Shown here: positions 2 to 20,204 of the stretch, piece by piece
How positions within the stretch are numbered: the first letter of the stretch is position 1
Layout: every line of letters starts with the position of its first letter
NCBI GenBank assembly: GCA_963819375.1
Contig: CAWFVU010000009.1
Span: forward strand, 876,649-940,648
DNA from: an uncultured Pseudomonadota bacterium
GTDB lineage: Bacteria > Myxococcota_A > Polyangia > Fen-1088
Length of the DNA stretch: 64,000 nt
Direction: 5' to 3'
The notes under the pieces: model-generated
Seen by the model: the letters and a program-made list of their open reading frames with translations, nothing else
The model's database searches: none
Told to the model about the DNA's origin: nothing
Translations under genes and position numbers: made by a program

Positions 2-1420
2 ATTGGCACTGCCGTTCCGGGGGGCCTCCCCGACCCCGGCGTCGGGACAATCATCAGCACGATGTCGTCCGACCAGCGCCTCTACTGGGGCTGCGTCATC
101 TTCTGGGTGGCGCGCAAGCTGCTCTCGACCCAAGCGGGCAAGTACTGGTGGCTGCTGCGGCGGCTCTTGCGCCTCGGTCTCGATCTCATCCAGCTCGCCT
201 CGACGCAGGGTGTGGCGAACGTGGCGGTGCTCGAGAAGCTGCGCGCGGGGACGCTCACCAGCTTGGACATCCAGGCGATTCCGCCGCAGAACAACTTCGC
301 CTCGGTGACGCAGGATCCGGTGCTCGGCGATCCGAACACCTGGACCGGCGCCCCCACGCCGCCCACCGCGGGCGCCAAGGACAGCGTGCAGGCGGCGGCG
401 TTCCGGCAGGCGGCGGAGGCTCTGTTCGACTTCGTCAACGGCGCGCCGAAGCTCAACCCGCAGATTCCGAAGGCCGACATCGGGGGGCTCGTGACCTGCA
501 TCCTGAACGCGCTCACGCCGGCGACGACGTTCGTCGCCTACGAGCAGGCGATCCACGTCCGGAACCCCAACACCACGCTGGCCTGGCAGGCGCCCGATCA
601 GCTGGAGCCGATCCTGACCCCGCCGTCGGTGACGTTTCCGATGTGGCAGCGCCTGGCGTCGATCTCCGCCGACTGGATCCTCCCCAACGTGGGCGACGTT
701 CCCCGCAACTCGGTCAGCCTGCTGGAGACCAACCAGGAGTTCATTGAGGCGTTCATGGTCGGCCTCAATCACGCGATCAACCGCGAGCTCCTCTGGAACG
801 GTTACCCGACCGACCAGCGGGGCACGGTCTTCCAGCAGTTCTGGGACCCGAGCGGCTGGGTCGACGGCGGAGGCGGCGTCAGCGTCACCGGCGATCGAAG
901 CTTCCTCGACATCACCGAGGTGCGAAGCTGGGATCCCGGCAGCGTCCTCGGCTCGCACACGGGACGGAACCCGAAGTTCGAGTACCTGGTCCTGCTCGTG
1001 CGCGGGGACGTCATCAAGCGCTACCCGAACGTCATCGTCTACGCCTCCAAGGCGAAACTCGACGATCAGAACGTCGTCACGATCGACGACAGCCAGCAGA
1101 TGTATCCCGCGTTCCAGGCGGTCTTGACCGGCGACGTCGCCTACTACGGGTTCGAGCTGACGAAAGACCAGGCCCGCGGCATCGCACCCGATCCCGGCTG
1201 GTTCTTCGTCCTCCAGGAGCACCCCTCGGAGCCGAAGTTCGCCGATCCGGAATCACCCGCCGATTCGCAGGCCGACAACTTCCTGCGCGAAGACTACGCG
1301 AACAATAGCAACAACCCCGGCGGCGCCGCGCCGCCGACCGCCGCCGTCCTGGCCAAGGTCGCGTTCGATCCACCGATTCGCGCCGTGCTCCTCGGCAGCG
1401 AGCTGCTGCCTGCGGGGTAG
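2..1420 (+). CDS. hypothetical protein, 5'-partial (first gene of four-gene operon)
   Basis: Frame is open from the window edge with no upstream stop; the first ATG is at 62. Stop lies 15 bp before the next gene. Acidic, Thr/Pro/Gly-rich, no recognisable motifs. Confidence 0.6.
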   Translation: MGTAVPGGLPDPGVGTIISTMSSDQRLYWGCVIFWVARKLLSTQAGKYWWLLRRLLRLGLDLIQLASTQGVANVAVLEKLRAGTLTSLDIQAIPPQNNFASVTQDPVLGDPNTWTGAPTPPTAGAKDSVQAAAFRQAAEALFDFVNGAPKLNPQIPKADIGGLVTCILNALTPATTFVAYEQAIHVRNPNTTLAWQAPDQLEPILTPPSVTFPMWQRLASISADWILPNVGDVPRNSVSLLETNQEFIEAFMVGLNHAINRELLWNGYPTDQRGTVFQQFWDPSGWVDGGGGVSVTGDRSFLDITEVRSWDPGSVLGSHTGRNPKFEYLVLLVRGDVIKRYPNVIVYASKAKLDDQNVVTIDDSQQMYPAFQAVLTGDVAYYGFELTKDQARGIAPDPGWFFVLQEHPSEPKFADPESPADSQADNFLREDYANNSNNPGGAAPPTAAVLAKVAFDPPIRAVLLGSELLPAG

Positions 1421-1435
1421 GGGGAGACACAAGAG

Positions 1436-4400
1436 ATGGCCACACTTCAATCCATCGCCGACGCCCGCGCCGCGCTCAAGGCGGCTCGCGACAAGACGGC
1501 GAGCAAGCTGTTCGCGCGCGTGACCGCTCAGCAGGCCTTCGACGCAGCCGCGCGCGCGTTCACGTCGGACAGCACCGACTTCATCGATGCGCAGAACGCG
1601 CTTGGCGTCGCCTCGTCGGAGCTAGACGCCGCGCGAAGCGACGAGAAGACGGCGCGCGACGGTCTCCCCGACGGGCTCAATGCTCAGATCGCCGATTGGC
1701 TCACCGTTCCCGGGAGCAATCCCGTCCAGTACCTCACGCCGGACGACGATTTTGCTCGGATGGAGCTGGTGGGAAATCCGGTGGCGCTGTTCCCCGTTCG
1801 TCTGGAGACGCGGTTCGACGTCAGCGCCGGAGTCCTGCACGTCCGCGTCTACCCGGACGAGTTCTTCTCCGACATCCACGAGCGCGAGCTGACGCCCGAC
1901 GAGCACGACGCCGGAATCGCCTACTGGCACAGTCAACCGGCGACCGACGAGCGGACCGATCCCGCGTTCGTCGATCGATGGTCGGCGCTCGCCAAGCGCT
2001 ACGGCGTCCCGCGCGCGGCCTACATCGCCCGCGTCATGACGCCGCCGGTGACCAGCACGCCGTCACTGCGCGCGACGGTCCCGAGCCGCGGCGCCGAGGC
2101 GGTGCTCCCCGATCGCTGGGTCGCCCTCGCTTACAAGAACGGCCAGCTGCGCCACTTCGTCCCGGGCCTGCCGATCCCCGAGCCGATCGATCTGACGGCC
2201 AACCCGTCCGCCGACGACCAGACGATGTCGGAGGTGGCCGACGGGTTCGAGGTCCCGTCGAACATCCTCTGGACCATGCGCTACGACGAGGCGCTGGCCA
2301 AGGGGATGGCCATCGACATCGGCGGGCTGGCTGCCGATGAGCTCAGCGGCGGGTTCGATCGGGTCGTCGTGCTGGGGGTGAAGACGTCGATGGATCCGGC
2401 GGACTCTTCCCAGCTGATCTCGGATCTCTTCGACGCGCACCACTACACGCGCGGGCTGGACCTGGTCCCGCTGGGGACACCGACGAACAACGTCCCCGGC
2501 CTGCCGACCCCCTTCACCATGAAGGACCCGCCGGGGGCGGAGACCTTTCAGATCGAGCGCATCGGGCCCGGCGGCGAGCCGACTTTCAACCCCGATTACG
2601 TCGCGCTGGCCGAGCTGTTCGGCTTCGACAGCTCCACCGGACCGTTCACGTTCTTGGCCGGGTCGCTGAACGGGCAGCACGACATCTTCACCGGGGCGGA
2701 CATGCGGCGCGCCGTCTGGCCCGCCACGCTCGGCTACTTCCTGCGCCAGATGATGAACCCGCCGAACGGAACTCCGATCTTCGACGAGACGACGTTTCAG
2801 GCCGCCAAGGGGTTCTTCCTCTCCTACGTCTCGGCGCAGGGTCCGGCACCGGCGTTCCGCGTGGGCGCCGTCCCTTATGGGCTGCTTCCGGCGATCTCCT
2901 ACTCGCGCATGAAGGCGCAGACGACCGAGAACGCCGACGCGATGGCAGTCATCCAGAAACTGGTGCCGTTCTGGCTGGACGCCGTTCCGACCGTCCTGAC
3001 CGTGCCGCGCGACTCCACCGATCGCAACACCGATCTGATGAACGTGCTCTCCCAGAAGTCGAGCGCCGACGGCGTGTTCATCCGGAACAGCATCGGTCCC
3101 GACACGATCACCAACATCTTCCAGTTCATCTTCGAGGACTGGAGCGCCATCTACGCGGCCCTGGCCCAGCTCCCGAACACCAAGCTCGGCGCGCTCGGCC
3201 ACACCGACTGGGCGAAGGCGCGGATCTTCGAGATCCTCTTCTCGGCGACCACGGCCCTCTACGGCGGGCCGCTCGTGACGGCGCACCCGCAGCAGGGGAT
3301 GCTGGTGTCGGCGGTCTCGAATCCGAATCCGAATCAGCCGACCGACACCCTGAACTACCTGGCGTTCCTTGGCGATACCCGGCTGGATTTCGGGCCTGTT
3401 CAGGGCCAAGGCAGCATGGGCAACGCGGCGCCGCCCAACGAGCTCCTGCCGTTGCTCTTCCTGGTGGCCCGCCACTCGCTGTTGCTCGAGTCGATCGAAG
3501 TGGGACGGGCCTCGAGTGTCCTTTCGAGCGCGTTTTCGAAGCTGCGGGTGGCCGATGTCGAGCTCTGGCGGATCCTGAGCACCAACGAGACGGACATCAT
3601 CGACGTTCTGGGGGGGGCCTCGCCGAGCGCGAGCCGATCGGTGTTCCGATCGGTCGTGCTGAACAGCGACAGCAAGACCACCGTCGACACCAGCCATCCC
3701 CCCGTATTCTCCCAGATTCAGTCCGCCCTCCAGCGACTCTCCTTCCTCTCGGTGGCCGAGCTGGAGCGGGTGTTCACCGAGTCGCTCGATCTGGCGGCGC
3801 ATCGGCTGGACGCGTACGTCACCGCCATGGCCACCCGCCGCCTGCTTGTCTTGCGGAGGCAACTCGTCATCGGCCTGCGCCAGCAGGGCGTGATCGCCGA
3901 CGAGCCGACGACCAAGCTCACCTACTTCGGCGGCTACGGCCTCGTCGAGGACGTCCGACCCGTGGCCCGAACGACGAAACAGATCAACGGGGTCACGTTT
4001 GACGTGCAGCTGGACAACGGAGGCTACATCCACGCGCCGTCGCCGCGCCACGCGACCGCGGCGGCCATCCTGCGCAGCGGCCGGATGGCGGAGAACAGCG
4101 ATCCCACCAAGTACGCTATCGAGCTGCCGTCGGACCGCGCGCGGCGCGCGCGGCTGCTGGTCGACGGCGTCCGCAACGGCCAGCCGCTGGGCGAGCTCCT
4201 GGGGTTCGAGCTGGAGACCAACCTGCGCCAGCGCGCCCAGACCGAGCAGATCACGGGGATGGAGGGCTACATCCTGGCGCTGCGCCAGCTCTATCCCCTG
4301 GTCGCGAACAAGTCGGGGCTCGACCCAGGGCAGCCGGCCGATGGGATCGCCGCCGCCAACGTGGTCGACGGCCAGAAGGTCCGGGACGCCCGGAGCAAGG

Positions 4401-6187
4401 CGGGCGGCATCCCATTCGGGACGGGCGGGCTCCCCGCGCCGAGCTCGACGGACGCGGGGGTCATCCGCGACGAGGTCGATGGACTCGACGAGATCGTCGA
4501 CGCGATCAGCGATCTCGAGATCTCCGAGGCGGTCTTCCAGGTCGCCGCCGGCGACGTGGCCAGCGCCGAGGCGGCGATGAACTTCTTGCCCACCGGTTCC
4601 AACCCGCCGCAGTCCGAGGTCACGAACTCTCCGACGGCCGGGATCCCCGTGAGCCATCGTGTCGCATTGCTGCTCGAGGGAGATGCGCCGACCGCGACCG
4701 GCTGGACGCTGGTCGGCTCGCCAACGGGGACCTCGCGCTCGGTCCGAGGGCAGGCCGATCCCTTCGTCGAAGCCTGGATCGGCAGCCTGCTCGGCGACCC
4801 GAGCGGTGCGAAGGCCACGGTGTCGTTTCAGCTGGGCGGCAACGCGGGAACCAGCCATGTCTCCGTGGCGGACATAAATACGATCGGCCCGCTCGATTTC
4901 TTGGCGTTGGCGCAGAGCACTTCGTCGTTCGGGCAAGGATCACCGCTCGATCGCCAGCTGGCCGCGGCGTGGCTGGCCCTTCCGGGGAACGCGAGCGCGA
5001 CGGATGTCATCGTCACCGGCTACGACACGCCCACGTCGGGTCCCGGCATCCCGCAGCTCATCGAGTTGGCACGCGCCCTCGGTTCGGTCCTGGGCGGGGC
5101 GCGCGAGCTCGCGGCGGCGGATCTGGTCCTCACCCCCGATGACATCAAGGACGACGACCTCGCCGGTCTGGCAGGCCCGCTGAAGATCCAGGCTGCTGAC
5201 GCCTTCACGGCGTTGAACTCCGCCCTGAACGCATTCGACAACGTCGACGCCCGCACTGCCCTGGGCCTGGCCGCGCTCTTTCAGGCGGATGCCTTCCCCG
5301 ATCCGGGCGCGACCGGCGCGGACCTCGACCCTCTGGTGGCGAGCGCCAAAGGCGAGCTCGGACGCCGCGTGAACGATGCGCAGGCGGCGGCACCGGGCCA
5401 GGACGCGAGCAACGCTGACACCATCGCGGCCGCCATCAATGAGCTCCGGATCATCTTCGGGCGCAACACGCTGGTGGTGCTGCCGAGCGCGATCCCCCCG
5501 GGCAGCGGTGAGCTCCAGCAGTCCCTCGCGGCCCTCGACAGTCCGCTCGACCTCAGCAATCCGGACCCGAGCCTCGACCTCACCAAAGCCGCCACCTTCG
5601 CCCCCCACCAGGCGCCGGGCCGGTATCTCCAGCAGGCGTCGCGGGTGCACGAGCGGCTCGCTGCCTGGCGCAAGTTCAGCCTCTACGCCGGCGCGTTCGG
5701 GGCGCCGTTGCCGCGGATCTCCGCCGCGCAGCTTCCTTTCGTCGACCAGGAACAATGGGTTGGCCGCGTCGCGCCCACCGACAGCCGGACGTCGCTGCTG
5801 TTCATCTCGGCGAACGGACAGACGTCCCTTCCCGATCCGACGAACGCGTGGCGCGGCCTGTTGCTTGATCAGTGGACCGAGCTCGTCCCCGGCCCGATCG
5901 CCGAGACGGGGCTGGCGTTCCACTATGACAGCCAGAACTCGGAGGCACCGCAAGTGATCCTGATGGCGATGCATTCAGGGCAGACGAACAGCTGGAACCT
6001 GGCGGAGCTGGCAGCCATCGTGACGGAGACGATGGACCTGGCGCTCATCCGACCGGTCGACAGCGACCGGGTAGGGCTGGGCCAGCTCGTCCCGCCCATC
6101 TGCCTGGCGTCGAATTCGACGAATCGGGTGGTCAGCTCCAACATCGGTCCGGAGGCACGGGAAAACGTGCCGATCGTGGTGACCTGA
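1436..6187 (+). CDS. giant hypothetical protein (1583 aa), N-terminal Ala-rich coiled-coil-like segment
   Basis: Uninterrupted 4.75-kb ORF. All overlapping antisense ORFs are R/G-rich junk. No Walker A, no signal peptide. Stop overlaps the next start (TGATG). Confidence 0.75.
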   Translation: MATLQSIADARAALKAARDKTASKLFARVTAQQAFDAAARAFTSDSTDFIDAQNALGVASSELDAARSDEKTARDGLPDGLNAQIADWLTVPGSNPVQYLTPDDDFARMELVGNPVALFPVRLETRFDVSAGVLHVRVYPDEFFSDIHERELTPDEHDAGIAYWHSQPATDERTDPAFVDRWSALAKRYGVPRAAYIARVMTPPVTSTPSLRATVPSRGAEAVLPDRWVALAYKNGQLRHFVPGLPIPEPIDLTANPSADDQTMSEVADGFEVPSNILWTMRYDEALAKGMAIDIGGLAADELSGGFDRVVVLGVKTSMDPADSSQLISDLFDAHHYTRGLDLVPLGTPTNNVPGLPTPFTMKDPPGAETFQIERIGPGGEPTFNPDYVALAELFGFDSSTGPFTFLAGSLNGQHDIFTGADMRRAVWPATLGYFLRQMMNPPNGTPIFDETTFQAAKGFFLSYVSAQGPAPAFRVGAVPYGLLPAISYSRMKAQTTENADAMAVIQKLVPFWLDAVPTVLTVPRDSTDRNTDLMNVLSQKSSADGVFIRNSIGPDTITNIFQFIFEDWSAIYAALAQLPNTKLGALGHTDWAKARIFEILFSATTALYGGPLVTAHPQQGMLVSAVSNPNPNQPTDTLNYLAFLGDTRLDFGPVQGQGSMGNAAPPNELLPLLFLVARHSLLLESIEVGRASSVLSSAFSKLRVADVELWRILSTNETDIIDVLGGASPSASRSVFRSVVLNSDSKTTVDTSHPPVFSQIQSALQRLSFLSVAELERVFTESLDLAAHRLDAYVTAMATRRLLVLRRQLVIGLRQQGVIADEPTTKLTYFGGYGLVEDVRPVARTTKQINGVTFDVQLDNGGYIHAPSPRHATAAAILRSGRMAENSDPTKYAIELPSDRARRARLLVDGVRNGQPLGELLGFELETNLRQRAQTEQITGMEGYILALRQLYPLVANKSGLDPGQPADGIAAANVVDGQKVRDARSKAGGIPFGTGGLPAPSSTDAGVIRDEVDGLDEIVDAISDLEISEAVFQVAAGDVASAEAAMNFLPTGSNPPQSEVTNSPTAGIPVSHRVALLLEGDAPTATGWTLVGSPTGTSRSVRGQADPFVEAWIGSLLGDPSGAKATVSFQLGGNAGTSHVSVADINTIGPLDFLALAQSTSSFGQGSPLDRQLAAAWLALPGNASATDVIVTGYDTPTSGPGIPQLIELARALGSVLGGARELAAADLVLTPDDIKDDDLAGLAGPLKIQAADAFTALNSALNAFDNVDARTALGLAALFQADAFPDPGATGADLDPLVASAKGELGRRVNDAQAAAPGQDASNADTIAAAINELRIIFGRNTLVVLPSAIPPGSGELQQSLAALDSPLDLSNPDPSLDLTKAATFAPHQAPGRYLQQASRVHERLAAWRKFSLYAGAFGAPLPRISAAQLPFVDQEQWVGRVAPTDSRTSLLFISANGQTSLPDPTNAWRGLLLDQWTELVPGPIAETGLAFHYDSQNSEAPQVILMAMHSGQTNSWNLAELAAIVTETMDLALIRPVDSDRVGLGQLVPPICLASNSTNRVVSSNIGPEARENVPIVVT

Positions 6188-7953
6188 TGAGCGCGACCAT
6201 CGCCTCGATCACCAGCTGGCATCGCCTGATCCCGATCTCGCGGTCGGCCGACTTCGCCACCGCGATCGCGGCCGAGATTCACGACCCCCTCTGGATGCTC
6301 TCGCGCCAGCACCGGATCGGCGAGCTGAGAGCGCAGGACGCCGGATCGCCGGCGTTCGTCCAGGTCGGCTACAAACCGGCGCCGCTCACCCAGCTGACCT
6401 TCATCTCAGGCACGACGCAGCCGGCGACCGTTCCGTTCGACACGAGCAAGCCGATCGAGGCGCAGATCCTCCCCGAGCCGCAGGCACCGGACCTCGCTAC
6501 CCGCGTCGAGCTCGGCCTGACGTTCCTGCAGATCCTCCGTGAAGCGGGAACGACGGGCGCGCAGGCCGCCCAGGCGTTCGCCGGGGCTCCTTCCCTCTCG
6601 CTGGCGCAGCCCACCGGCACCCCCTTCGACCCCATCGATCAGGCGACCGCCACGTTCGTGACCATGGCCGGCGGACGCGCCATCGACGGTGTAACGGTCC
6701 TCGGTTTTGCACAGGGGTCGACCATCCCAGGCGACGTCAATCTGACGGCCGCCCAGACGACGACGGTCATGAACGTCTACAAGGCGTTCATCGTCTGGGT
6801 GCAGGCAACCTTCGGGAAGATCGACACCACACCCGGAACCGATCCCCAGGGCTGGAATCCCAGCCTTCTCGACTACGACATCCAGCTGCAGTTCGCCGGG
6901 ACGGACACCGTCACGCTGAACGTCGAGCCCAACGAGAACGGCGTCGTCGACTGGACCTCCTTCGACTTTGCGAGCCAGACGGGCACCGGCGATCCGTTCG
7001 CGGGGATCACAGCCCAGGTCACCCAGGTGGTGCCGATGACCGTCCGCTTCCCCGGGATGCCGGCCCCGCGCCACTGGGACTTCGAGAGCGGCGAGCTCCC
7101 CTGGCCCGACGTCGACACGACCCGCACCGAGCTCCTGCGACTCCTGGTCATCGACTTCGCGATGCTCTATGGTCTCGACTGGTTCGTGACGTCGCTCGAT
7201 CTCCCTGTGGGCAACGCCGTCAAGATCGACACCCTGGTCGTGAACGACGTGTTCGGCGGGCAGACGCTCATCGATCCGGTCGAAGCCGCACGCAACGTCC
7301 AGGCGCCTGCCGTGCCCGACCGGTTCACGATGTACAGCACCGCCTCGCCCGGCGGCAACGTCGCCGGCTTCATGGTCCTGCCTCCCGCGGCCGGCGCAGC
7401 GCTGCAACAGGGCGCGGTGCTGGAAGAGGTGCGGTTCGCGCGCGACGAGATGGCCGACATGGTCTGGGGCGTCGAGGCGGTCACCGAGAGCCGCATCGGC
7501 GAACGCCGGCGCGGCAGCGAGCGCGACGCCGCCGTCGACGCCGCCGTTCTGCCGCCGCCGGCGCCCACGAACGTCGACCCGCTGAGCTACCAGCTCGAAA
7601 GCAAGATTCCGGTCCACTGGATTCCCCTCCTCATTCCGGACACCGGCGCGCCCAGTACTTTTTTCCTGAAGGGGGCGTCCGAGCGCTCTCCCGACGGCAC
7701 CTCGAGCCCGATTGCGGTCGTGCCGGCGGGCAAGATCTTGAACCCGACCGGGGTCCCCCCCACCGATTACCAGGTGTTCCAGGAGCAGATCCCGCGCAGC
7801 GGCGCTCGCGTCCAGCGGGTCCGGTTTGCGGCGCGCGCCCTCGATGGACAATCGTACTTCTGGGTCGGCCGGCGGCGGCGGGCGGGCGCGGGCGAGACGC
7901 AGAGCGGACTGCGCTTCGACGCCCCCCTGCCCACGCAACCGCCGACCTCATAG
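6187..7953 (+). CDS. hypothetical protein (588 aa), operon partner
   Basis: ATG overlaps the upstream stop, indicating translational coupling. Coding-like composition. No known motifs recognised. Confidence 0.75.
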   Translation: MSATIASITSWHRLIPISRSADFATAIAAEIHDPLWMLSRQHRIGELRAQDAGSPAFVQVGYKPAPLTQLTFISGTTQPATVPFDTSKPIEAQILPEPQAPDLATRVELGLTFLQILREAGTTGAQAAQAFAGAPSLSLAQPTGTPFDPIDQATATFVTMAGGRAIDGVTVLGFAQGSTIPGDVNLTAAQTTTVMNVYKAFIVWVQATFGKIDTTPGTDPQGWNPSLLDYDIQLQFAGTDTVTLNVEPNENGVVDWTSFDFASQTGTGDPFAGITAQVTQVVPMTVRFPGMPAPRHWDFESGELPWPDVDTTRTELLRLLVIDFAMLYGLDWFVTSLDLPVGNAVKIDTLVVNDVFGGQTLIDPVEAARNVQAPAVPDRFTMYSTASPGGNVAGFMVLPPAAGAALQQGAVLEEVRFARDEMADMVWGVEAVTESRIGERRRGSERDAAVDAAVLPPPAPTNVDPLSYQLESKIPVHWIPLLIPDTGAPSTFFLKGASERSPDGTSSPIAVVPAGKILNPTGVPPTDYQVFQEQIPRSGARVQRVRFAARALDGQSYFWVGRRRRAGAGETQSGLRFDAPLPTQPPTS

Positions 7954-7968
7954 CCGAGGAGCACCAGC

Positions 7969-9396
7969 ATGGTCACCGGACTTCCCAGCGCCGACAGCCT
8001 GATCGTCCCGATTGTCACCCTCCGGCGAAAGCTGGCGACAGAGGAGGTCGGCTTTCGCAACACGGTCACCAACGCCCAGAGCACCGACAAGAACGTCACT
8101 GCCATGGCCAACGGGATGGTCGAGATGCTGACGGTCTCCCTCGCGACCACGGTCGTGTATCCGCCCCCCGATCAGACGACGCTGATGGCGCTGCAGAGCT
8201 CGCTCCTCGACGGCTGTGGGAAGGCGCTGACGGCGGCCAACGCCGGCACGAAACCGAAGGCCTCGGCGGACGCCTCCGGCTACACGCTCACCGGGATCCC
8301 CAACCTGGGGCAGGCCGACCCGGCCTCGCCGGGGTTCTCGAGCTCGGACACCGATCTCACGAATCTGCTGCTCGCGCAGGATCCGATCATCGCCGCCAAG
8401 CAGTTCCAGGGAATCGTCGGCGCGGTGTCCGCCGTCGTCGATGGGACGCTGACGCTGAAGAGCATCATGCTGACTCGGCCACTCCCCGCTTCGCACACCG
8501 GCCTCGAAGGGCAGGTGGTCCTGGCGATCAACCTGGCGCTCCAGAAGGCCAAGCACCTGTTCGAGGACGGGATCCTGGCGCGGGTCAACACCGGGCTCGA
8601 CTCGAGCGCGGTCACCTTCTCGCAGGCCTGCCTGTGGGCGCAGGGGAACCTGGTCATCGCCGACCGCGTGAAGATCAAGAACCAGAACGGCACGTTCGCG
8701 CCGTCGGTCAACGCCGGCTCCGCGCAGACCAACGCGGGCGCGGACGCCCAGGTGGGCGACATCTGGAGCCGCGCGGCCGTCGAGCTGCGCGATCGCTGCA
8801 AGGCGACCGGCAACGTGCGCACCATGTCCACCCTCAAGCTCGACGCCAACGCTTCGGTCACCGGTGTGGTCACGCAGAACGGCGCGCTCTTGCAGATCCC
8901 GACGCTCAGCCTGGCGGTCACCTTTCCGGGGACCAACCAGGGGAGCAAGAACGTTGCGCCCAACGGCACGCTGACGCTGGCGCCGGGCGCTTACGACGGC
9001 GTGACGGTGAACGCCGGCGCCACGCTGTTCCTCAGCACCGGGACCTACTTCTTCAACAACTGGGACGTCGAGCCGAACGCCAAGATCTCCTGCAGCTCGG
9101 GGAGCGGGCAGATCGTGGTCAACGTGAAGGTCGGCCTCATCTACCGGGGATCGATCATCGAGAAGACGGGCGGACGACCCAAGATGTTCGTGGGGGTGTT
9201 CGGGACCTCGGCGGTCTCGCTCGAAGGGCCGTTCACCGGCACCTTCATGGCGCTCACCGCGCCGCTCACCCTCGCCACGCTGACCTCTCCGGCGGTGCAC
9301 ACGGGCGCGTTCTACGCCCAGAGCATCACCGTCAACCCCGACAACACGATCACTTACTTCCCGTTCGCCGGTCCTCCCACCCCCGTATCGAGCTGA
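7969..9396 (+). CDS. hypothetical protein (475 aa) with C-terminal beta-helix resembling ice-binding-like DUF3494 fold
   Basis: Lies 15 bp after the upstream stop. The C-terminal segment GTYFFNNWDV...GQIVVNVKVG...FTGTFMALTAPLTLAT...FYAQSITVNPDNTITY matches the periodic pattern of DUF3494 beta-helices. Confidence 0.7.
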   Translation: MVTGLPSADSLIVPIVTLRRKLATEEVGFRNTVTNAQSTDKNVTAMANGMVEMLTVSLATTVVYPPPDQTTLMALQSSLLDGCGKALTAANAGTKPKASADASGYTLTGIPNLGQADPASPGFSSSDTDLTNLLLAQDPIIAAKQFQGIVGAVSAVVDGTLTLKSIMLTRPLPASHTGLEGQVVLAINLALQKAKHLFEDGILARVNTGLDSSAVTFSQACLWAQGNLVIADRVKIKNQNGTFAPSVNAGSAQTNAGADAQVGDIWSRAAVELRDRCKATGNVRTMSTLKLDANASVTGVVTQNGALLQIPTLSLAVTFPGTNQGSKNVAPNGTLTLAPGAYDGVTVNAGATLFLSTGTYFFNNWDVEPNAKISCSSGSGQIVVNVKVGLIYRGSIIEKTGGRPKMFVGVFGTSAVSLEGPFTGTFMALTAPLTLATLTSPAVHTGAFYAQSITVNPDNTITYFPFAGPPTPVSS

Positions 9397-9596: not shown

Positions 9597-10448
9597 TCAG
9601 GCTCGGGCGAGGCGCGCGGCCAGCCTGCGCGCGTCGTGAGGCGCGTGTCCTTCGGCGTCGTTGTCGAAGTAGACGTAGACGTCTTCGCCCGCGGTCGTCC
9701 AGCGGTGAATGCGCTTCGCCCAGAGGTCGAGCTCGCCGTCGGTGTAGCGGCTCGCATACAGTGAGGTGGCCCCATGCAGACGGACGTAGGCGAAATCGGC
9801 CGTCCGCTCGAGACTGAGCGGATGCTGTCCTGCCGTGTCGGCGGCGACCAGCGCGACGTTCAGGTCGCGAAGCATTCGCAATGCGTGCCCGGAGAGCCAG
9901 GAGGGATGGCGGATCTCGACCGCGTGACGCAGGGGCATCTCTCGGCCGTCGGCGGCCCGCAGCGCCGAGCGGCCGGTGGTCCTCCGGTCGTGCCGGCGGG
10001 CCCAGCGTTCGGCGCCGGGAACGTCGCGGGGAAGGGCGGTGAAAAATGCCCGCGCCCGCGCTTCATCCCAGGGGAGCTGCGGTGGGAGCTGCCACAGGAT
10101 CGGCCCCAGCGCCGCGCCGAGGCGTAACAGGCCGGAGGCGAAGAAGTTGGCCAGCGGACCCTCGAAGTTCCGCAGCTTGAGCATGTGCGTGATGTACCGG
10201 CTCCCCTTCACCGCGAGGACGAACCCGTCCGGGACGGAGCTTCGCCAGGCCGTGCAGGTCTCGGGACGTGTCAGTGAGTAGAAGGTCCCATTGATCTCGG
10301 CCGTATTCAGCCGCTCGGCGAGATAGTGGAGCTCGAGCCGTTGTGGCAGGCCGCGGGGATAGAAATCGCCGCGCCAGCGCGGGTAGCGCCAGCCACTGGT
10401 CCCCACCCGTGCTTGGCCGAGCCGGGCGGTGCGCTTCCTGGTGGTCAT
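9597..10448 (-). CDS. DUF72 (YecE-like) family protein
   Basis: N-terminal VGTSGWRY...W...FYP...L.YYA..LN..EINGTFY signature of DUF72. Confidence 0.85.
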   Translation of the reverse strand: MTTRKRTARLGQARVGTSGWRYPRWRGDFYPRGLPQRLELHYLAERLNTAEINGTFYSLTRPETCTAWRSSVPDGFVLAVKGSRYITHMLKLRNFEGPLANFFASGLLRLGAALGPILWQLPPQLPWDEARARAFFTALPRDVPGAERWARRHDRRTTGRSALRAADGREMPLRHAVEIRHPSWLSGHALRMLRDLNVALVAADTAGQHPLSLERTADFAYVRLHGATSLYASRYTDGELDLWAKRIHRWTTAGEDVYVYFDNDAEGHAPHDARRLAARLARA

Positions 10449-10684
10449 CGGGACGCTCGGGGACGTCGTCGGCGATGGGGATGACGTCCCCCGCCGGGAG
10501 GCCTCACTGTCCGCCTAGAGACGCCGGCTGCGGCTCCGGCCCGCGCGACGAGCGCTGATGAGTTGCACGAGCACCTTCAGCAGTGCTCCAAACAGGAGGG
10601 CGTGAACCGCAGACGACACCGCGATGACACAATGTAAGGCGCTCACCCGCCGCTGGAAGACGTTGCCCGATGTCTCGTTGAGAT

Positions 10685-11470
10685 TTGCACCCGCGCGAAC
10701 CGCGCGCACATTGCTTGAATGTCCATGAGCAAGCACGACGACCCGTGACGACCGGTCCCCGTCGTCCATCGCCAACAACGATCCGCGGTCTTCGCGTGGC
10801 TGCGAATGCCTGTCGGGCCTGCCCGCTGTGGGAACGCGCGACCCAGACGGTGTTCGGCGCCGGGCGCGCGCGGGCATCGCTCGTCCTGGTGGGCGAGCAA
10901 CCGGGCGACGAGGAGGACCGGAGAGGCGTGCCGTTCGTGGGGCCAGCGGGACGGCTCCTCGATGAGGCTCTGAAAGCCGCGCAGCTCGAGCGTGCTGAAG
11001 CCTACGTCACCAACGCGGTCAAGCACTTCAAGTGGAGACAGGCCGAGGGCCGCGGGAGGCGTCGCATCCACGACAAGCCCAACGCCAACGAGATCCGCGC
11101 CTGCCGCCCTTGGTTGCTCGCGGAGATCGAGGCCATTGGACCGAAGGTCATCGTGTGCCTGGGGGCGACGGCCGCGCGTTCGCTGCTGGGGCCCGACTTC
11201 CGCGTCACCAAGCGGCGGGGAGAGGTGATTGCGCTGGCCGCCGGATCATGTGTGATCGCGACAATCCATCCGTCCGCGATTCTGCGCGCGCCCGATCACG
11301 GCACGCGTGAGCGCGAGATACGCCGGTTCGTGGCAGACTTGGCCGTCGCCCGCGCCCAGCTGTCGGCAGAGGCTCCACATGTGCGTTTACCTCCTCTACG
11401 AAGTCTTCTGAACAGCGTCGTGTCGTCCCCAAAGAGGCTTGCGCAGATCGACGACGACCATACCTTCTAG
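10685..11470 (+). CDS. udg: uracil-DNA glycosylase, family 4
   Basis: Carries the CRACPLW...TQTVFGAG, GEQPGDEED, FVGPAGRLLDEAL and HPSAILR motifs. The true start is probably an internal GTG around 10745-10796. Confidence 0.85.
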   Translation: MHPREPRAHCLNVHEQARRPVTTGPRRPSPTTIRGLRVAANACRACPLWERATQTVFGAGRARASLVLVGEQPGDEEDRRGVPFVGPAGRLLDEALKAAQLERAEAYVTNAVKHFKWRQAEGRGRRRIHDKPNANEIRACRPWLLAEIEAIGPKVIVCLGATAARSLLGPDFRVTKRRGEVIALAAGSCVIATIHPSAILRAPDHGTREREIRRFVADLAVARAQLSAEAPHVRLPPLRSLLNSVVSSPKRLAQIDDDHTF

Positions 11471-11607
11471 GCACCATGAACGAGGATCGCGACGCGCGCG
11501 ACCAAGAGGGTGGACCGACTCCGGCGGAAGGCGATGTGTGGGCACGCGCCGCCCAGCAAGCGCTCCGAGACATGAGCCGAGCGCAGAAACAGCCGCCCGC
11601 GTCCGAG

Positions 11608-11871
11608 TCAATTGTCCCCGGGGGTGCCTCCGGGGATGCGTCCACAATCAAGGGTCGCTGACGACGAGCTCGCAGCTGTCTCCAGGTCCTTCTTCGCGAC
11701 TTCGAGGTCCGACCAAGTCGCTTCAAGACCGCGCCCGACGTCGCAGGCCGTGGCCGCCCGCAGCGGTGCGCACCGTTCGCAGGTCGCTGCATGGAGCGAG
11801 TAGGCGTCGCGGGCAAGCCGTATCGACCGCTCGAGCCTGTCGAGTCTTTGTCGCCGCGACCCGGCCGTCAC
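11608..11871 (-). CDS. small conserved Cys-containing hypothetical protein (paralogue of 58453-58659)
   Basis: Shares the RLDR..R...AR.AYS.HA...C.PL.A...C.VGR.LEA...LE..KK.L pattern with the ORF at 58453-58659. Confidence 0.45.
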   Translation of the reverse strand: MTAGSRRQRLDRLERSIRLARDAYSLHAATCERCAPLRAATACDVGRGLEATWSDLEVAKKDLETAASSSSATLDCGRIPGGTPGDN

Positions 11872-11917
11872 GCGCCGAGCGTATCACCTAAAAACCTGCG
11901 GACGAGCGTAACGGCGA

Positions 11918-13198
11918 TCACGCCGCGGAGCGCCATCGCTGCCTCGTTGGGCGGCTTCGACCGGAGCCTAGACGCAGCGATCGGCGGAGCTGGGTCTCCA
12001 GCGGCGTGCCGTGCTTTTCGTCGGCCAGGCGGCCCTGAAGCAGCGCCAGCACCGCCGCCTCTTCGGGGCGCAACCCCGCCAGCCGGCGGCGCGACGGTTG
12101 GGCGTCCGCCCGCCGCCTGAGCGCGCGGGCCAGCGTCCCGTCCAGATACGACGCGATGACGTCGGGGTGCACGTAGCACTTCCGGCAGACCGCCGGCGTG
12201 TTGCCCAACCGCTTCGCGACCTGCTCGATGGCCCGGTTCACTTCCCCTGCTGTCGATCTCCGCGCCCGGTTTCGCGGTGGTTGCGACTCCTTCGCGGCGG
12301 TCAGCTCTTGCAAGGCCAGCGCGGCGAGCACCGTTCCCGCCCAGGTGCGGAAGTCCTTGGCCGTGAAGTCCTGTCCGGTCGCCTCCCGGATGTAGTCGTT
12401 CACGTCGGCGGAGTCGATGGCGGCGGGCTGGCCGTCCTCGCCGACGCACTGGAACAGCTCCTGCCCCGGGAGATCGCGGCAGCGCCGCACGATCCGCGCC
12501 ACCGCCCGGTCGTGGACCGAAACGTCGTGCATGACGCCGCTCTTGCCGCGAAAGTGGAAGCGCACCTCCGACGGGCGGATTGCCACGTGGCGATCCTTCA
12601 GCGTCGTGAGGCCAAACGATCGGTTGCTGCGCGCGTATTCCTCGTTGCCGACACGCATGAACGTCGTCTCCAGCAGCCGGACCACCGTCGCCAGGACCTT
12701 TCGCCGCGGCAGGCCCGGCAACCGCAGATCCGTGGCGATGCGCCGCCGCAGCGCCGGCAGGGCGTGGCCAAGCCCGATCGTGTGCGCGTACTTGGTGCCG
12801 TCGCGCTCCTCGCGCCACCGCGGGTGATACCGATACTGCTTGCGACCGCGGGCGTCGCGTCCGGTCGCCTGCAGATGGCCGTTGGCCTCGGGGCAGATCC
12901 AGACGTCCCTCCAGGCGGGCGGGATGGCCAGCTTGCGAATCCGCGCTTCAGTGGCGGCGTCATCGACGCGGCGACCGTCCGGGTGCGCATAGATGAACTG
13001 CGGGACGAAGCGCTTGCCCTGCCGCAGCCTCTTTCCGGTGGCGCGGCGCCGGATCCCGGGCCTCCGGTCGTCCACGTGGCGAAGCCCAGCCGCGCGGGCG
13101 GAGGCGGCGGGGTCGGCCGCCGTGTCGGGATCCACCGCAATCTGGAGCGCATGCGCGGCCACTGCCTTCCACGTTAAGAGGCCGAGCCGGCCCCACAA
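11918..13198 (-). CDS. DNA topoisomerase IB (poxvirus-type, bacterial TopIB)
   Basis: Carries the PGIRRR..GK.F.Y, PPAW, KQYRYHP.W, FRGKSG and DFRTWAGTV motifs, and a catalytic-Tyr motif CRKCYVHP. The start may be an internal GTG near 13075. Confidence 0.85.
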   Translation of the reverse strand: MWGRLGLLTWKAVAAHALQIAVDPDTAADPAASARAAGLRHVDDRRPGIRRRATGKRLRQGKRFVPQFIYAHPDGRRVDDAATEARIRKLAIPPAWRDVWICPEANGHLQATGRDARGRKQYRYHPRWREERDGTKYAHTIGLGHALPALRRRIATDLRLPGLPRRKVLATVVRLLETTFMRVGNEEYARSNRSFGLTTLKDRHVAIRPSEVRFHFRGKSGVMHDVSVHDRAVARIVRRCRDLPGQELFQCVGEDGQPAAIDSADVNDYIREATGQDFTAKDFRTWAGTVLAALALQELTAAKESQPPRNRARRSTAGEVNRAIEQVAKRLGNTPAVCRKCYVHPDVIASYLDGTLARALRRRADAQPSRRRLAGLRPEEAAVLALLQGRLADEKHGTPLETQLRRSLRLGSGRSRPTRQRWRSAA

Positions 13199-13391
13199 GG
13201 TCCCCCATACGCGGTTGCCTGATTCGCCACGATGCCTAACTTTCTGCCAGACGACAGCTCCGGCGCGTGGGGGGCGTTCGCAAGATTGGTGGCGGGCGGC
13301 GCCAAACCTCGCGTCCGACAGAGGGTCTGCTGCTGTCCACTATCCATCCTGTGCCCGATGCACATCATCGAAGCCCGAAGGAAGGCCGATC

Positions 13392-13856
13392 ATGGGACGA
13401 GAGACGGTGGACGAGAGCGCGATCCGAAAGGTCATCGAGACCTGGCACCGGGCCACCGCCGACGGCGACCTGCCGACGGTGCTCGGGCTGATCGCAGAGG
13501 ATGCGGTCTTCTTGGCCCCAGGGCGGCCGCCCACGCGCGGGCGAGCCAGCTTCGCACAACGCCTGACTGAGGCTTTGAAGGCCCAGACGATTCGTTCGAG
13601 TGGCGAAGTTCGCGAGGTAAGGGTGTCCGGCGATCTCGGGTACTGCTGGGCCGAGCTGACGGTCATCGCCACACCCCTCGATGGCAGCGCAGCGACACTG
13701 CGAAAAGGACCCGCCCTGTCGGTCTTTCGCAAGGAATCGAGCGGCGCGTGGGTGCTCATCCGGGACGCGAATATGATGGTGGCCGACGCGGCCGAGCTGG
13801 AGCTCAAGGTGGACAATCTGGAGCGCGAGCTGATGGCTGATGGTCCCGGAGGGTAA
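13392..13856 (+). CDS. SnoaL-like/DUF4440 (NTF2-fold) protein
   Basis: ATG at 13392. The sequence IRKVIETWHRATADGDLPTVLGLIAEDAVFLAPG is typical of DUF4440/NTF2-like proteins. Confidence 0.7.
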   Translation: MGRETVDESAIRKVIETWHRATADGDLPTVLGLIAEDAVFLAPGRPPTRGRASFAQRLTEALKAQTIRSSGEVREVRVSGDLGYCWAELTVIATPLDGSAATLRKGPALSVFRKESSGAWVLIRDANMMVADAAELELKVDNLERELMADGPGG

Positions 13857-13885
13857 AGCACACTCATGGGACCAAAAGGTTGCAT

Positions 13886-15643
13886 TCAACTGGTCCGAAA
13901 ACCACCGGCCAGACCGGGCGTCGTCGAGCGGTCCGCGGGACTCCCTGGATGTTCCGCAATGCTGGGCTCGCTCGGCTGGAATGGCCGGGAGTCCGAGGGG
14001 AGATCGATTATGAAGGTCGTGCCTGCCTCTTCACTGCTCTCGCCGATGCTGACCCGGCCGCCATGTGCCTCGGCGCACGCCCGAACCAAGGCGAGCCCCA
14101 GCCCCCATCCGGTCCCGGTCCCTTCGCGAAGCCTCGAATAGAGGTCGAAGAGTCGACCCCGCTTCTCCGGCGGGATCGGGTCCCCGAAGTTGTGAACGGA
14201 CGCTCGGACGCCGTCCGGGGTTCGCTCGATCCGGGTGGTGATGGGGCGATCCGGCGCGCCGTATTTCACGGCGTTCGTTCCGAGATTCCACAACGCCCGG
14301 TGAAGCTCTTGTTGGCTCCAAATCCCGAGAATCCCGTCGCTCTTTGCGAGCTCGAACCGTTTGCCGTGGGCAGCGGAGAGCTCCTCGATGACCTCTTCTG
14401 CGACGGCGCCCAGATCGCAGCGGTCGAGCCGGAGCGGGAGGCGCTGGCCCCCGCGGACGCGGCTGACATCGAGGAGATCGCGGATCATCCGATCCATGCG
14501 CTCCAGACTGCGCCCGATTCGTCCGGCGAGGCTTTGCCTTTCATCGAGTCGATCCGTCCGCCGAATCATCAGCTCGGCGCTCATCTTGGCGGTGGAGAGG
14601 GGGCCGCGAAGATCGTGCGCCAAGATGGATACGAATCGTTCGCGCAGCTCGCGCTCGATTCCGAGCTCCTCGACCTGTTGCCGAAGATCTGTGTAGAGCC
14701 TGGCGTTGTCGAGATGAACGGTCAGACGGTCGCCGAGAGCCTGGAGTCGCCTCAGCTCCCGCTTGGTCAAGGGGCGATCGTCGTCGAGCCCGATGTACAG
14801 GACGCCGAACAGCTTGTGATGGGGCGGAAGCCGGATGCCCTGGAGCGATTTGATCCCGTTTTGCCGAAGGGAATCGTTCAGCGTCAGCTTGATGGCCCCG
14901 GCCTCCGTGTCGTGCGTCCGCTCCTCCGGCAGCTCCACCGAAGTCGCGAGCCGCTCGACCTCCTCGCTGCCGACCCCCGCCGACGCCGCGGTGATGACCC
15001 GCTCCGTCTGCGGCTCATACAAGACGAGCGCGACATTTCGCGCATTCATGGCCTGCAGGATCAATTTCAGCAATTCCTCGAGGCGCGCCTTGATCGGCGC
15101 TTCGGGTGCGCGGAGGGCATCGTCGGCGACGGTCTGAAGCAGGCGCATGTATTGCTTCTCGTGCTCGGTCTCGGCCAGATCGGCCGTGCGCGAACCCACC
15201 ACGCCCTCCAGGACGTGGCTGTATTTGTCGAGATAGTCGCTGTAGGCCTTCAGCCGCAGCAGGTTCTTGACCCGCATCCGCAGCTCTGCGCGATTCACCG
15301 GTTTGGTGAGAAGGTCCTCGGCCCCCGCAGCCAGCCCGTTCATCATGGCGTCGCGATCGTCCAGCGCGGTGATCATGATGATCGGGATCTGTGTGGTGGC
15401 GGAGTCGCCCTTGAGCTTTGCGGCCACCTGGTACCCGTTCATACCCGGCATCATGACGTCGAGCAGGATGAGGTCGGGTGGCTGGCGGGCCACGAGGGCA
15501 ATGGCCTCCTCGCCATTCGCGGCCGTCAGCAGGAGGAAGCCCTCCGGCGCGAGCATGACCTCGAGCAGCTCCCTGTTGTGGCGTTCATCGTCGACGATCA
15601 GAACGCACGCTGGCCGGTCGGTGAATTCGGGCAGCGCCCTCAT
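13886..15643 (-). CDS. response-regulator receiver + GAF + histidine kinase (REC-GAF-HisKA-HATPase)
   Basis: Receiver segment VLIVDDERHNRELL...DLILLDVMMPGMNG, H-box ILAHDLRGPL, and G-boxes GTGWGLGLALV. The ATG overlaps the upstream stop in an ATGA motif. Confidence 0.85.
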   Translation of the reverse strand: MRALPEFTDRPACVLIVDDERHNRELLEVMLAPEGFLLLTAANGEEAIALVARQPPDLILLDVMMPGMNGYQVAAKLKGDSATTQIPIIMITALDDRDAMMNGLAAGAEDLLTKPVNRAELRMRVKNLLRLKAYSDYLDKYSHVLEGVVGSRTADLAETEHEKQYMRLLQTVADDALRAPEAPIKARLEELLKLILQAMNARNVALVLYEPQTERVITAASAGVGSEEVERLATSVELPEERTHDTEAGAIKLTLNDSLRQNGIKSLQGIRLPPHHKLFGVLYIGLDDDRPLTKRELRRLQALGDRLTVHLDNARLYTDLRQQVEELGIERELRERFVSILAHDLRGPLSTAKMSAELMIRRTDRLDERQSLAGRIGRSLERMDRMIRDLLDVSRVRGGQRLPLRLDRCDLGAVAEEVIEELSAAHGKRFELAKSDGILGIWSQQELHRALWNLGTNAVKYGAPDRPITTRIERTPDGVRASVHNFGDPIPPEKRGRLFDLYSRLREGTGTGWGLGLALVRACAEAHGGRVSIGESSEEAGTTFIIDLPSDSRPFQPSEPSIAEHPGSPADRSTTPGLAGGFRTS

Positions 15644-16008
15644 GCCCGGACCAACTGCTCTGCGACCGTCTTCAGAAAGTCCCCGTATCGCATCGGCTTC
15701 GCGATGTAGCCATCGCATCCAGCGGTTCGAATGCGCGCTTCGTCTCCCTTCATCGCCAGGGCGGTGAGGGCGATGACCGGAATGCCGCGTGTCGCCGGGT
15801 CCCGCTTGAGCAGCACCGTGGCCTGGAGACCATCCATCCCGGGAAGCTGAATATCCATCAAGATGAGCTCAGGCCGCTCGTCGCGCGCCAGCGCCAGCCC
15901 CGCCTCGGCATCCGTCGCGCTGAGCACAGTATGTCCCACGGATTTCAGCAGAAATGTCGCCAACTTCATGTTGGTGGGGTTGTCCTCGACGACCAGGACC
16001 TTGGCCAT
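15640..16008 (-). CDS. single-domain CheY-like response regulator
   Basis: Receiver sequence VLVVEDNPTNMKL...LILMDIQLPGMDG...YIAKP. Confidence 0.9.
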   Translation of the reverse strand: MAKVLVVEDNPTNMKLATFLLKSVGHTVLSATDAEAGLALARDERPELILMDIQLPGMDGLQATVLLKRDPATRGIPVIALTALAMKGDEARIRTAGCDGYIAKPMRYGDFLKTVAEQLVRA

Positions 16009-16009
16009 G

Positions 16010-18574: not shown

Positions 18575-18713
18575 CCTCCATGTAGTGGTTTACCCGAGCT
18601 CATCGCGGGTGCCTCGCTCGTGTCGCGGGTCGCGGCCGAACGAAGTCAGGAGCTCGCAAGAAGTTGGCGGACCGTCTCATCGTGCCTAGGTTCCCGGTTG
18701 AGCCGGCCAACGA

Positions 18714-20204
18714 TTGACAAATGAGCAGCTAAATCTCGAACGGTTGGTTGGCGAGGTCGGACGAGGGGGCCGGGCTCTGGTTGGCGAGGCAACACGCGCC
18801 CTGGTCCGGCGCTTCGGCGATCGGGGGGCGTGCGTTTTGGTGAACGATCGCGCCAGCGTCGTCCTGTCGACGGACATGCCCCTCTTGAGCGAACTGCGCA
18901 TTGATCTCGCACGCTATCCGGAGATCACCGCGGCCGTCGCGAGCCAGGAGATTGTAGCCATCGAGGACGTCCGACGCTCGACCACGCTGGAGCCGGTCTC
19001 GAACCTTTTACCGAGTCACTTGGGCGCCGTGGTGGTGATTCCGCTCGTGGCCGGGCCGCGTTGCTTGGGCGTCATCATAGTTCGGTCCGAACGACCGCGG
19101 GAGGTACTCGAGACCGACGTCCTGGCAGCGCGTTTCGAGGGTCGACTGGTCGCGACGTTGCTCGAGCTCCAATTCGGCAGCGATCTCGGCGATGAGCTCA
19201 AGCTCCGCATCCAGGCGTCGGGGGAGGTCGCTCAGTCGGTCGTTCGGCCTTCGGACCAGTCGAGCGGCCAGAAGCGCAGAATCCTCGTGGCCGAGGACGA
19301 CGTCGAACAGGGAGCGACGCTTGACGATCTCCTGAGGGGCGAGGGCTTCGATGTGGTGTTGACCCGAAACGGAGAAGATCTCCTGAGGGAGGCGAGTCGG
19401 GCACCACCCGACCTCATCCTCCTCGACGGCCACATGCCGATTCTCAACGGCTTCCAAGCCGCCGAGAGCCTGCACGCTGATCCCCGAACCGCCGGCATTC
19501 CCATTCTTTTCCTTTCGGCCGCTGAAGACCTGCTGTGTCGCATCCAGGGCCTCAAGCCAGAATCCATTGATTTCTTGCGAAAGCCGTATGCAACGTCGGA
19601 GCTGCTGGCGCGTATCGAGAGGGCTCTTCAACAGGGCCGGAGGTACCAAGAGTTGCGCGCGGAGGCCGACGTCGACGCCCTGACGGGGCTCAGCAACGCC
19701 CGCGCGCTGGTCAGGGCATTGACCATCGAGAAGTCGCGCATTTCGAGATACGGCGCCACGTCAGCCGTCGTCATGATGGACGTCGACAAGTTGAAGATAA
19801 TCAATGATCGCCACGGGCACATTGTGGGAAGCCGCATGCTCCAAGCCATCGGAGAGCTGTTGCGAGGCATGATTCGCGAGACCGATCTCGCGGCCCGCTA
19901 CGGGGGTGACGAATTCGTGGCCATTCTCGCGCATACGAGCGCCGCCGAAGGGTACGCATTCGCGGAGCGCTTCCTGAGCCAGATTCGGCAGCTTTGGCCG
20001 CAGGGGATCGATGTATCGATGAGCATCGGGATCGCTCCCCTGGGCGAATCGGACGACCAATCGAGCGACGTGCTCCTTGCCAACGCCGACGCGGCAGCCT
20101 ATCGAGCCAAACGCCTGGGTGGGAACCGCGCCTGTATCTTCGACAGTGAGCTCGATTCGGCGGTTCCGCGCGGCCGCCGGCAGAATACCCAGGGCTCTTT
20201 ATAG
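18714..20204 (+). CDS. GAF-REC-GGDEF diguanylate cyclase
   Basis: Receiver ILVAEDDVEQG...LILLDGHMPILNG, then RYGGDEF with an upstream RETD I-site. Confidence 0.85.
   Translation: MTNEQLNLERLVGEVGRGGRALVGEATRALVRRFGDRGACVLVNDRASVVLSTDMPLLSELRIDLARYPEITAAVASQEIVAIEDVRRSTTLEPVSNLLPSHLGAVVVIPLVAGPRCLGVIIVRSERPREVLETDVLAARFEGRLVATLLELQFGSDLGDELKLRIQASGEVAQSVVRPSDQSSGQKRRILVAEDDVEQGATLDDLLRGEGFDVVLTRNGEDLLREASRAPPDLILLDGHMPILNGFQAAESLHADPRTAGIPILFLSAAEDLLCRIQGLKPESIDFLRKPYATSELLARIERALQQGRRYQELRAEADVDALTGLSNARALVRALTIEKSRISRYGATSAVVMMDVDKLKIINDRHGHIVGSRMLQAIGELLRGMIRETDLAARYGGDEFVAILAHTSAAEGYAFAERFLSQIRQLWPQGIDVSMSIGIAPLGESDDQSSDVLLANADAAAYRAKRLGGNRACIFDSELDSAVPRGRRQNTQGSL

Follow-up and report, generated by a model that had tools for sequence, protein, structure and literature searches.

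The window analysed here is a 64,000-nucleotide stretch of contig CAWFVU010000009.1 (assembly GCA_963819375.1, forward-strand positions 876,649 to 940,648) from an uncultured bacterium placed by GTDB in the Polyangia of Myxococcota_A. It opens with four genes on one strand which, judged by sequence and gene order, are the 3' part of a five-to-six-gene cassette. We call three families of that cassette D, E and F, and number the four open reading frames (ORFs) of the window in the direction of reading:

2..1420, plus strand: ORF1, partial and open at the 5' edge of the window (listed from 2 or 62), C-terminal 472 aa of a D-family protein
1421..1435, plus strand: spacer of 15 bp with a Shine-Dalgarno-like GGGGAG before the ORF2 ATG, read directly in the sequence
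1436..6187, plus strand: ORF2, E-family giant protein, 1583 aa
6187..7953, plus strand: ORF3, F-family protein, 588 aa
7969..9396, plus strand: ORF4, clade-specific accessory protein, 475 aa

The genes are closely joined. ORF1 ends in TAG, followed by 15 bp including GGGGAG and the ATG of ORF2; the start of ORF3 overlaps the stop of ORF2 by 1 nt (cc-TGATG-a); and ORF3 ends in TAG, followed by 15 bp including GAGGAG and the ATG of ORF4. A preliminary description of this DNA had reported four co-directional frames with spacings of 15 bp, a 1-nt overlap and 15 bp. Direct reading of the sequence confirms this, and the junctions bear out its proposal of a translationally coupled operon of large proteins. 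The G+C content at third codon positions is 0.89-0.93 in all four ORFs, against ~0.5 at second positions, in a genome of ~67% GC, and we therefore take all four to be real coding sequence.

Simple motif scans of ORF1-4 gave no hit to Walker A, HKD, HExxH or GxSxG, and only one 19-residue hydrophobic window, a marginal one in ORF3, scored above 1.6, in agreement with the earlier statement that the four products lack recognisable catalytic motifs and transmembrane helices. The same description had called all four acidic, which is right for ORF1-3 (isoelectric point ~4.7) and wrong for ORF4 (7.6). ORF2 begins with an Ala-rich segment whose first 77 residues contain no proline, as would suit a helix. 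It carries the motifs LFPVRLETRF, DAHHYTRGL, GTPTNN and VPYGxLP and aligns end to end with its homologues.

Relatives reveal the whole unit. The cassette runs, all on one strand, from a variable hydrolase gene through DUF6603 (~1150 aa), D (~950-990 aa) and E (~1570 aa) to F (~580 aa), and its conserved core amounts to ~4200 residues of protein in strict synteny. ORF1 is 66% identical to residues 534-997 of a 998-aa D protein in the closest long-contig relative (L001:6995-9988), so the window begins mid-D; the DUF6603 gene and the first gene of this copy lie beyond its 5' edge and are known from relatives. Across 81 non-redundant loci, each gene being scored only where the contig leaves room, a D-family gene lies directly upstream of E in 71 of 71 loci, a DUF6603 gene upstream of D in all 64, and an F-family gene next after E in all 70. 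The window has the same arrangement, with ORF1 (the C-terminal half of D) upstream and ORF3 (F) downstream of ORF2 on the same strand. The gene order recurs in the archaea Salinigranum marinum and Halalkalicoccus, and 4-nt start/stop overlaps join cassette genes in several lineages (PGAP records of Streptomyces, Rhizobium and haloarchaea). The operon thus reaches further upstream, as had been anticipated from its open edge. The four-gene unit first proposed needs redrawing: its synteny is indeed conserved, and the conserved unit is DUF6603-D-E-F plus a variable enzyme gene, with ORF4 a clade-specific addition. In one locus, on Rhizobium lusitanum plasmid p_3 (L087), D and E are each annotated as two successive overlapping ORFs (357+731 aa and 946+597 aa), which points to frameshifts or to a genuine division of the two genes.

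The first gene, immediately ahead of DUF6603, almost always shares its strand and lies close to it, yet comes from unrelated families. Among 53 first genes scanned, 21 encode PhoD-like phosphatases (often with DUF7800), 6 encode M64 peptidases and several are trypsin/NAL1-like, with subtilase S8, carboxypeptidase M14 and PLD represented once each; a tyrosinase takes this position in one further locus. The enzyme class changes even among close relatives of the window cassette, being M64-like in L001, trypsin/NAL1-like in L002, L010 and L012, and of another family in L003. Comparison of PhoD-like and peptidoglycan-binding first-gene proteins with the PDB gave nothing useful. The three commonest classes retain their catalytic signatures: GDQIYAD, DDHE and SGDVH in the PhoD-like proteins, HExxH in the M64 proteins, and His, Asp and GDSG in the trypsin-like proteins. 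Most of the first-gene enzymes are hydrolases predicted to be active. The module had been described as one without enzymatic motifs, a view that does not extend to the cassette of the relatives, where the product of the first gene is usually a hydrolase whose catalytic motifs are intact.

The core proteins themselves have almost no catalogued kin. Scans against Pfam-A, NCBIfam, PADLOC and PHROGs gave no match at E<=1 for ORF1-3. The homologues of ORF2 number at least 874, of ~1500-1600 aa and all unnamed, with a Pfam domain in only 1 of the 120 listed; ORF3 has 208 homologues, and ORF1 has 244, all 'hypothetical' and without Pfam domains. DUF6603 (PF20248) covers the second gene of the relatives' cassettes at full length (E 1e-120 to 1e-133) and is the only catalogued family of the conserved core, a name without a function. 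Sequence and profile searches of PDB chains returned nothing for ORF2, ORF3 or the D family, and for DUF6603 only low-complexity helical-bundle noise at the N-terminus. DUF6603, PF20248, DUF7800 and DUF7305 are mentioned nowhere in the literature library that was searched. D, E and F are thus without a Pfam entry, a PDB relative or a name in any source examined.

Structure models were built from family alignments for ORF3 (45 sequences; mean predicted local distance difference test score, pLDDT, 79.8; predicted template modelling score, pTM, 0.76) and for ORF2 residues 101-1300 (55 sequences; pLDDT 82.1; pTM 0.65); D, DUF6603, ORF4 and E residues 1-100 and 1301-1583 lie outside them. The E model contains one FN3/Ig-like beta-sandwich and is otherwise without a known fold. 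No structural match was found for the E model in the PDB or, by Foldseek, in the viral BFVD, nor for the F model in the PDB, and the modelled parts of E and F contain no Tc-toxin, contractile-injection, phage-tail, baseplate or capsid fold. As modelled, most of E and F is without a counterpart among solved structures.

Two stretches of F stand out as the most conserved, DPLWxLxRQ..GE..G.DAGSP at the N-terminus and G-M-P..R.W.FE at 290-300. They lie in the only long segments of the AlphaFold2 monomer model with pLDDT<50, ORF3 residues 1-53 (6187-6345) and 289-306 (7051-7104). Such conserved, apparently disordered segments may fold only with a partner and would then be candidate inter-subunit interfaces. 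E and F also have in common a helical module of ~100 residues (E 921-1024 and F 108-208; hhalign probability 71%, E 3.8e-5), beyond which no paralogy was found among the four core families.

The cassette is widespread. Relatives of E occur at no fewer than 552 loci in a scan of one genome per GTDB species, in at least 10 bacterial phyla. They are found in Myxococcota, Acidobacteriota, Gemmatimonadota, Verrucomicrobiota, Planctomycetota, Chloroflexota, Nitrospirota, Actinomycetota (Streptomyces, Micromonospora), Bacteroidota (Larkinella, Chitinophagaceae), Alpha-, Beta- and Gammaproteobacteria (Variovorax, Rhizobacter) and Firmicutes (Heliomicrobium, Clostridia). A tblastn search of PLSDB placed copies on linear plasmids of Streptomyces, on plasmids of Rhizobium and Gemmatirosa and, in four haloarchaeal genera, on megaplasmids, and recombinases or transposases adjoin the cassette in some loci. 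Three metagenome-assembled genomes (MAGs), two of Kofleriaceae and one of Myxococcales, carry two copies on different contigs (L042 and L059, L029 and L068, L033 and L046). In the only such pair with both first genes visible, L029 and L068, those genes differ. The cassette is accessory and horizontally mobile.

A phage origin was considered and rejected, there being no relatives in 2.9 million IMG/VR contigs. The only 'phage' match was MT835531.1 (L084/L085; UNVERIFIED Bacteriophage sp., human faeces, 76% GC). It carries the cassette in full, together with the bacterial chromosomal genes ComEC, LysR, Sir2, one for a BTAD-STAND-WD40 protein and one for an alcohol dehydrogenase, and a serine recombinase and recombination directionality factor lie adjacent. 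We read it as host chromosome at a prophage boundary; the record is probably a prophage-boundary or contaminant contig and not a phage genome.

Where might such a cassette act? Several relatives bear domains of a surface type. Annotation gives the PhoD-like first gene of Streptomyces longwoodensis a peptidoglycan-binding domain and the D of this species VCBS repeats; in Micromonospora a PG_binding_1 protein follows F. The haloarchaeal E proteins carry BGTF surface domains, within an insertion of ~330 aa in Salinigranum and in a protein of 3124 aa in Halalkalicoccus, and F of both genera ends in a lamin-tail domain. One E homologue is fused to a PLL-lectin/FG-GAP beta-propeller. The closest long-contig relative has a 462-aa FG-GAP protein between DUF6603 and D (L001:5333-6718), with a clear lipoprotein signal (MKPLFGTKLIHVALVLLAGAG-C; lipobox LLAGAG-C) and a long Gly/Ser/Ala-rich linker, and another relative, L003, has an FG-GAP gene further upstream.

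ORF4, the last gene of the window cassette, adds to this set. It comprises a YbaB/EbfC-like N-terminal region and a C-terminal domain of ~250 aa (about residues 210-470) of the DUF7305/pAdhesive_15 kind. Its own Pfam matches, to YbaB, bactofilin and DUF7305, are weak or sub-threshold (for DUF7305 E 0.06, 13.7 bits against a cut-off of 27). Its homologue in L012, 32% identical over the full length, matches YbaB at 2.4e-12 and DUF7305 at 1.8e-5, and homologues and relatives of ORF4 score 25-42 bits against DUF7305/pAdhesive_15. By phmmer, residues 210-470 link to at least 2242 representative proteins. Ten proteins with this domain were scanned: they matched DUF7305, one of them matched pAdhesive_15 ('putative ice-binding-like adhesive domain'), and they also contained M43, S8 and trypsin peptidase domains, CBMs and PKD domains. 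Going by these annotations, the domain keeps company typical of secreted proteins. ORF4 itself has no signal peptide, and the YbaB-like region stands in its place. The C-terminal domain probably folds as a beta-solenoid. An ice-binding-like beta-helix of the DUF3494 type had been proposed for ORF4; this was roughly right in kind and wrong in family, since DUF3494 (PF11999) gave no Pfam match at E<=1.

An ORF4-like gene is present in only 7 of the 66 loci with room for one, all in a single myxobacterial clade. There it is usually followed by a TPR/GT9-like (heptosyltransferase-like) gene and then by DUF6165/DUF4254, radical-SAM/SPASM and glycosyltransferase genes (L002:18046-20721; L092:18863-23584; L093:18095-19746). 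A GT9-like enzyme beside a beta-solenoid protein recalls adhesin heptosylation. The window lacks this GT9/DUF6165/radical-SAM/glycosyltransferase module, and outside the ORF4 clade the relatives' loci show no conserved downstream partner of the cassette.

Together, the lectin, FG-GAP/VCBS, lamin-tail, BGTF and peptidoglycan-binding domains of the relatives and the adhesin-type domain of ORF4 point to a surface or extracellular role, and they make the cytoplasmic structural module of the preliminary description doubtful. We propose, tentatively, that the core assembles into a surface-binding particle carrying a hydrolase. In this model D, E, F and DUF6603, which are large, acidic and cysteine-poor, would be made in fixed ratios through translational coupling and would assemble into one large hetero-oligomeric particle acting at or beyond the cell surface. 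Lineage-specific modules (the lectin beta-propeller, FG-GAP/VCBS, lamin-tail, BGTF Ig-like and peptidoglycan-binding domains, and the ORF4 beta-solenoid) would dock the particle on a cell wall or glycan. The swappable first-gene enzyme, be it a PhoD-like phosphoesterase, a protease of several classes, a PLD or a tyrosinase, would then be presented or delivered at the target surface. The outcome may be antagonism, predation or attack on an envelope by a particle loosely resembling a toxin complex. Complex formation, export, the part of the enzyme as payload and the identity of the target are what we infer here.

Several observations weigh against this proposal. No signal peptide, transmembrane helix or cell-wall/PGF C-terminal anchor was found in any core protein, bacterial or archaeal (the window N-termini being inspected by eye), and no secretion, lysis or immunity genes are conserved beside the cassette. 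Profile-profile comparison found no shared domain, segment or docking/targeting sequence among the enzyme classes of the first gene. The commonest 'payloads', PhoD-like phosphoesterases and M64 peptidases, are not classical toxins. Fusions to binding domains are confined to particular lineages, and D (C-terminal half), E and F of the window lack such domains. Finally, the median cysteine content of the core families, 0.26-0.35% against 0.9% in seven neighbouring window genes, is weak evidence for the proposal.

The best of the alternatives is defence against phages or plasmids, in which DUF6603-D-E-F would act as a sensor or scaffold complex and switch on the swappable hydrolase (protease, phosphoesterase or PLD) as an effector of abortive infection. 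The patchy distribution over phyla and both domains, with copies on plasmids and close to recombinases or transposases, would suit such a system, as would the presence of more than one copy in some genomes, and defence systems typically pair a conserved core with an exchangeable enzyme gene. A few loci also have STAND/NB-ARC/TIR, PIN-like and Sir2 genes in the vicinity. However, the cassette proteins match no PADLOC model, and the ~4200 core residues contain no NTPase, nuclease, methylase or nucleic-acid-binding domain. Lectin, VCBS, lamin-tail, BGTF, peptidoglycan-binding and adhesin-type domains would be unexpected in an intracellular sensor, and the downstream neighbours are not conserved. 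On balance we think defence unlikely.

It is also conceivable that the cassette serves its producer, as a machine for remodelling or differentiating its own envelope in development, sporulation or nutrient scavenging, and is not a weapon. It is carried mainly by bacteria of the soil whose life-styles are complex (Myxococcota, Streptomyces, Acidobacteriota, Gemmatimonadota). Peptidoglycan-binding domains and PhoD-like enzymes fit this idea, as do, in the ORF4 clade, the downstream genes for glycosyltransferases, GT9 and radical-SAM proteins; PhoD of Bacillus subtilis degrades wall teichoic acid. But an accessory, plasmid-borne and patchy cassette is not a lineage-conserved housekeeping locus, haloarchaea carry it and have no peptidoglycan, and the class of enzyme differs between close relatives. 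We regard a role in self-remodelling as improbable. A slim chance remains for an intracellular protein cage or scaffold, encapsulin- or vault-like, that sequesters a potentially harmful first-gene hydrolase: the lack of export signals on the core proteins, the tight coupling of large, structural-looking proteins without enzyme motifs, the variable enzyme gene that opens the operon and resembles one for a cargo, and the earlier cytoplasmic reading would all accord with it, but the cargo classes have no common targeting peptide or domain, neither E nor F resembles in fold the HK97-type or any other known shell protein, and the recurrent surface and ligand-binding fusions, peptidoglycan-binding ones included, are hard to explain in the cytoplasm. 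Such probability as these four readings leave belongs to something else.

The cassette resembles the Tc (ABC) toxins of Photorhabdus, Yersinia and Serratia, which also combine several very large acidic proteins without signal peptides in one operon with lineage-variable Ig-like or FG-GAP beta-propeller receptor-binding decorations and a variable enzymatic payload; the likeness is one of lay-out only. The cassette proteins carry none of the marks of TcA (VRP1, neuraminidase-like and TcB-binding domains), TcB (SpvB and TcdB mid domains) or TcC (RHS repeats). Contractile injection and phage-tail-like systems (Afp/PVC, T6SS-like) are likewise multi-gene mobile cassettes of structural proteins with swappable effectors, but Pfam and PHROGs searches found no sheath, tube, baseplate (gp25/gp6/gp27-like), spike or AAA+ ATPase family in the cassette.

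Modular anti-phage systems such as CBASS, Avs and Lamassu have in common with the cassette a conserved core, an exchangeable hydrolase gene and a patchy, mobile distribution. They differ in that the cassette has no NTPase, cyclase or nuclease sensor domain and does have domains of a surface type. PADLOC-DB v2 gave no match for ORF1-4, DUF6603, D, or the PhoD-like and M64-like proteins, and only a chance-level Cas2e match in a protease. Encapsulins differ too, there being no HK97 fold in the modelled parts of E or F and no cargo segment shared among the enzyme classes. As for the ice-binding-like or adhesin domains DUF3494, pAdhesive_15 and DUF7305, the C-terminal domain of ORF4 belongs to the same large family as proteins that match DUF7305 or pAdhesive_15.

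Sequence and fold searches alike therefore uphold the earlier judgement that no characterised secretion, toxin, phage-structural or defence system is matched. No remote homology to a known system emerged, and synteny is kept in relatives, the two points on which the preliminary description had staked its case beforehand. We rate the cassette as lying outside every known kind of system compared here and as a new kind, a rating that draws, for structure, on models of E and F.

The core proteins occur in hundreds of species of Bacteria and Archaea without functional annotation. Solving the function of the cassette would disclose a new multi-protein system, whether it proves to be a toxin or predation particle, to serve in defence or to cage an enzyme, and would give a role to one Pfam DUF and to three families without a Pfam entry. 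Its spread over two domains of life suggests that, in soil and hypersaline communities, selection is strong and genes for it often pass horizontally, and its swappable enzyme and binding modules suggest an engineerable platform for delivery or display. It is tempting to go further and envisage a new class of large protein machine, common to soil bacteria of many phyla and to haloarchaea and built from folds as yet absent from solved structures. Such a machine would leave the cell without classical signals, attach to target surfaces by interchangeable modules (lectin, Ig-like or adhesin) and bring an exchangeable hydrolase to them, and would then count as a novel sort of predation particle or of weapon between microbes; we consider this fuller picture rather doubtful.

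The surroundings of the cassette vary. In a Gemmatimonadaceae MAG a TIR-NB-ARC STAND NTPase of 1234 aa (L066:15977-19678) begins 73 bp after F on the same strand, and in L085 and L086, too, NB-ARC/STAND genes are found close to the cassette, by real association or by chance. In the window, the gene next downstream is a DUF72 gene (9597-10448, minus strand) convergent to ORF4. The genes that follow the cassette, at 9597-20204, are ordinary chromosomal ones and include no conserved cassette partner:

9597-20204: DUF72 (minus), a UDG-family glycosylase (plus), a bacterial type IB topoisomerase (minus), a SnoaL-like protein, two hybrid histidine kinases and a GAF-REC-GGDEF regulator

With a convergent gene followed by ordinary chromosomal genes, we place the end of the operon at 9396. 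Further along, GC content drops to ~0.58 at 32001-36000, against 0.63-0.70 elsewhere in the window, over long minus-strand ORFs (31975-34716, 913 aa; 34728-35564), and this dip may mark a horizontally acquired island.

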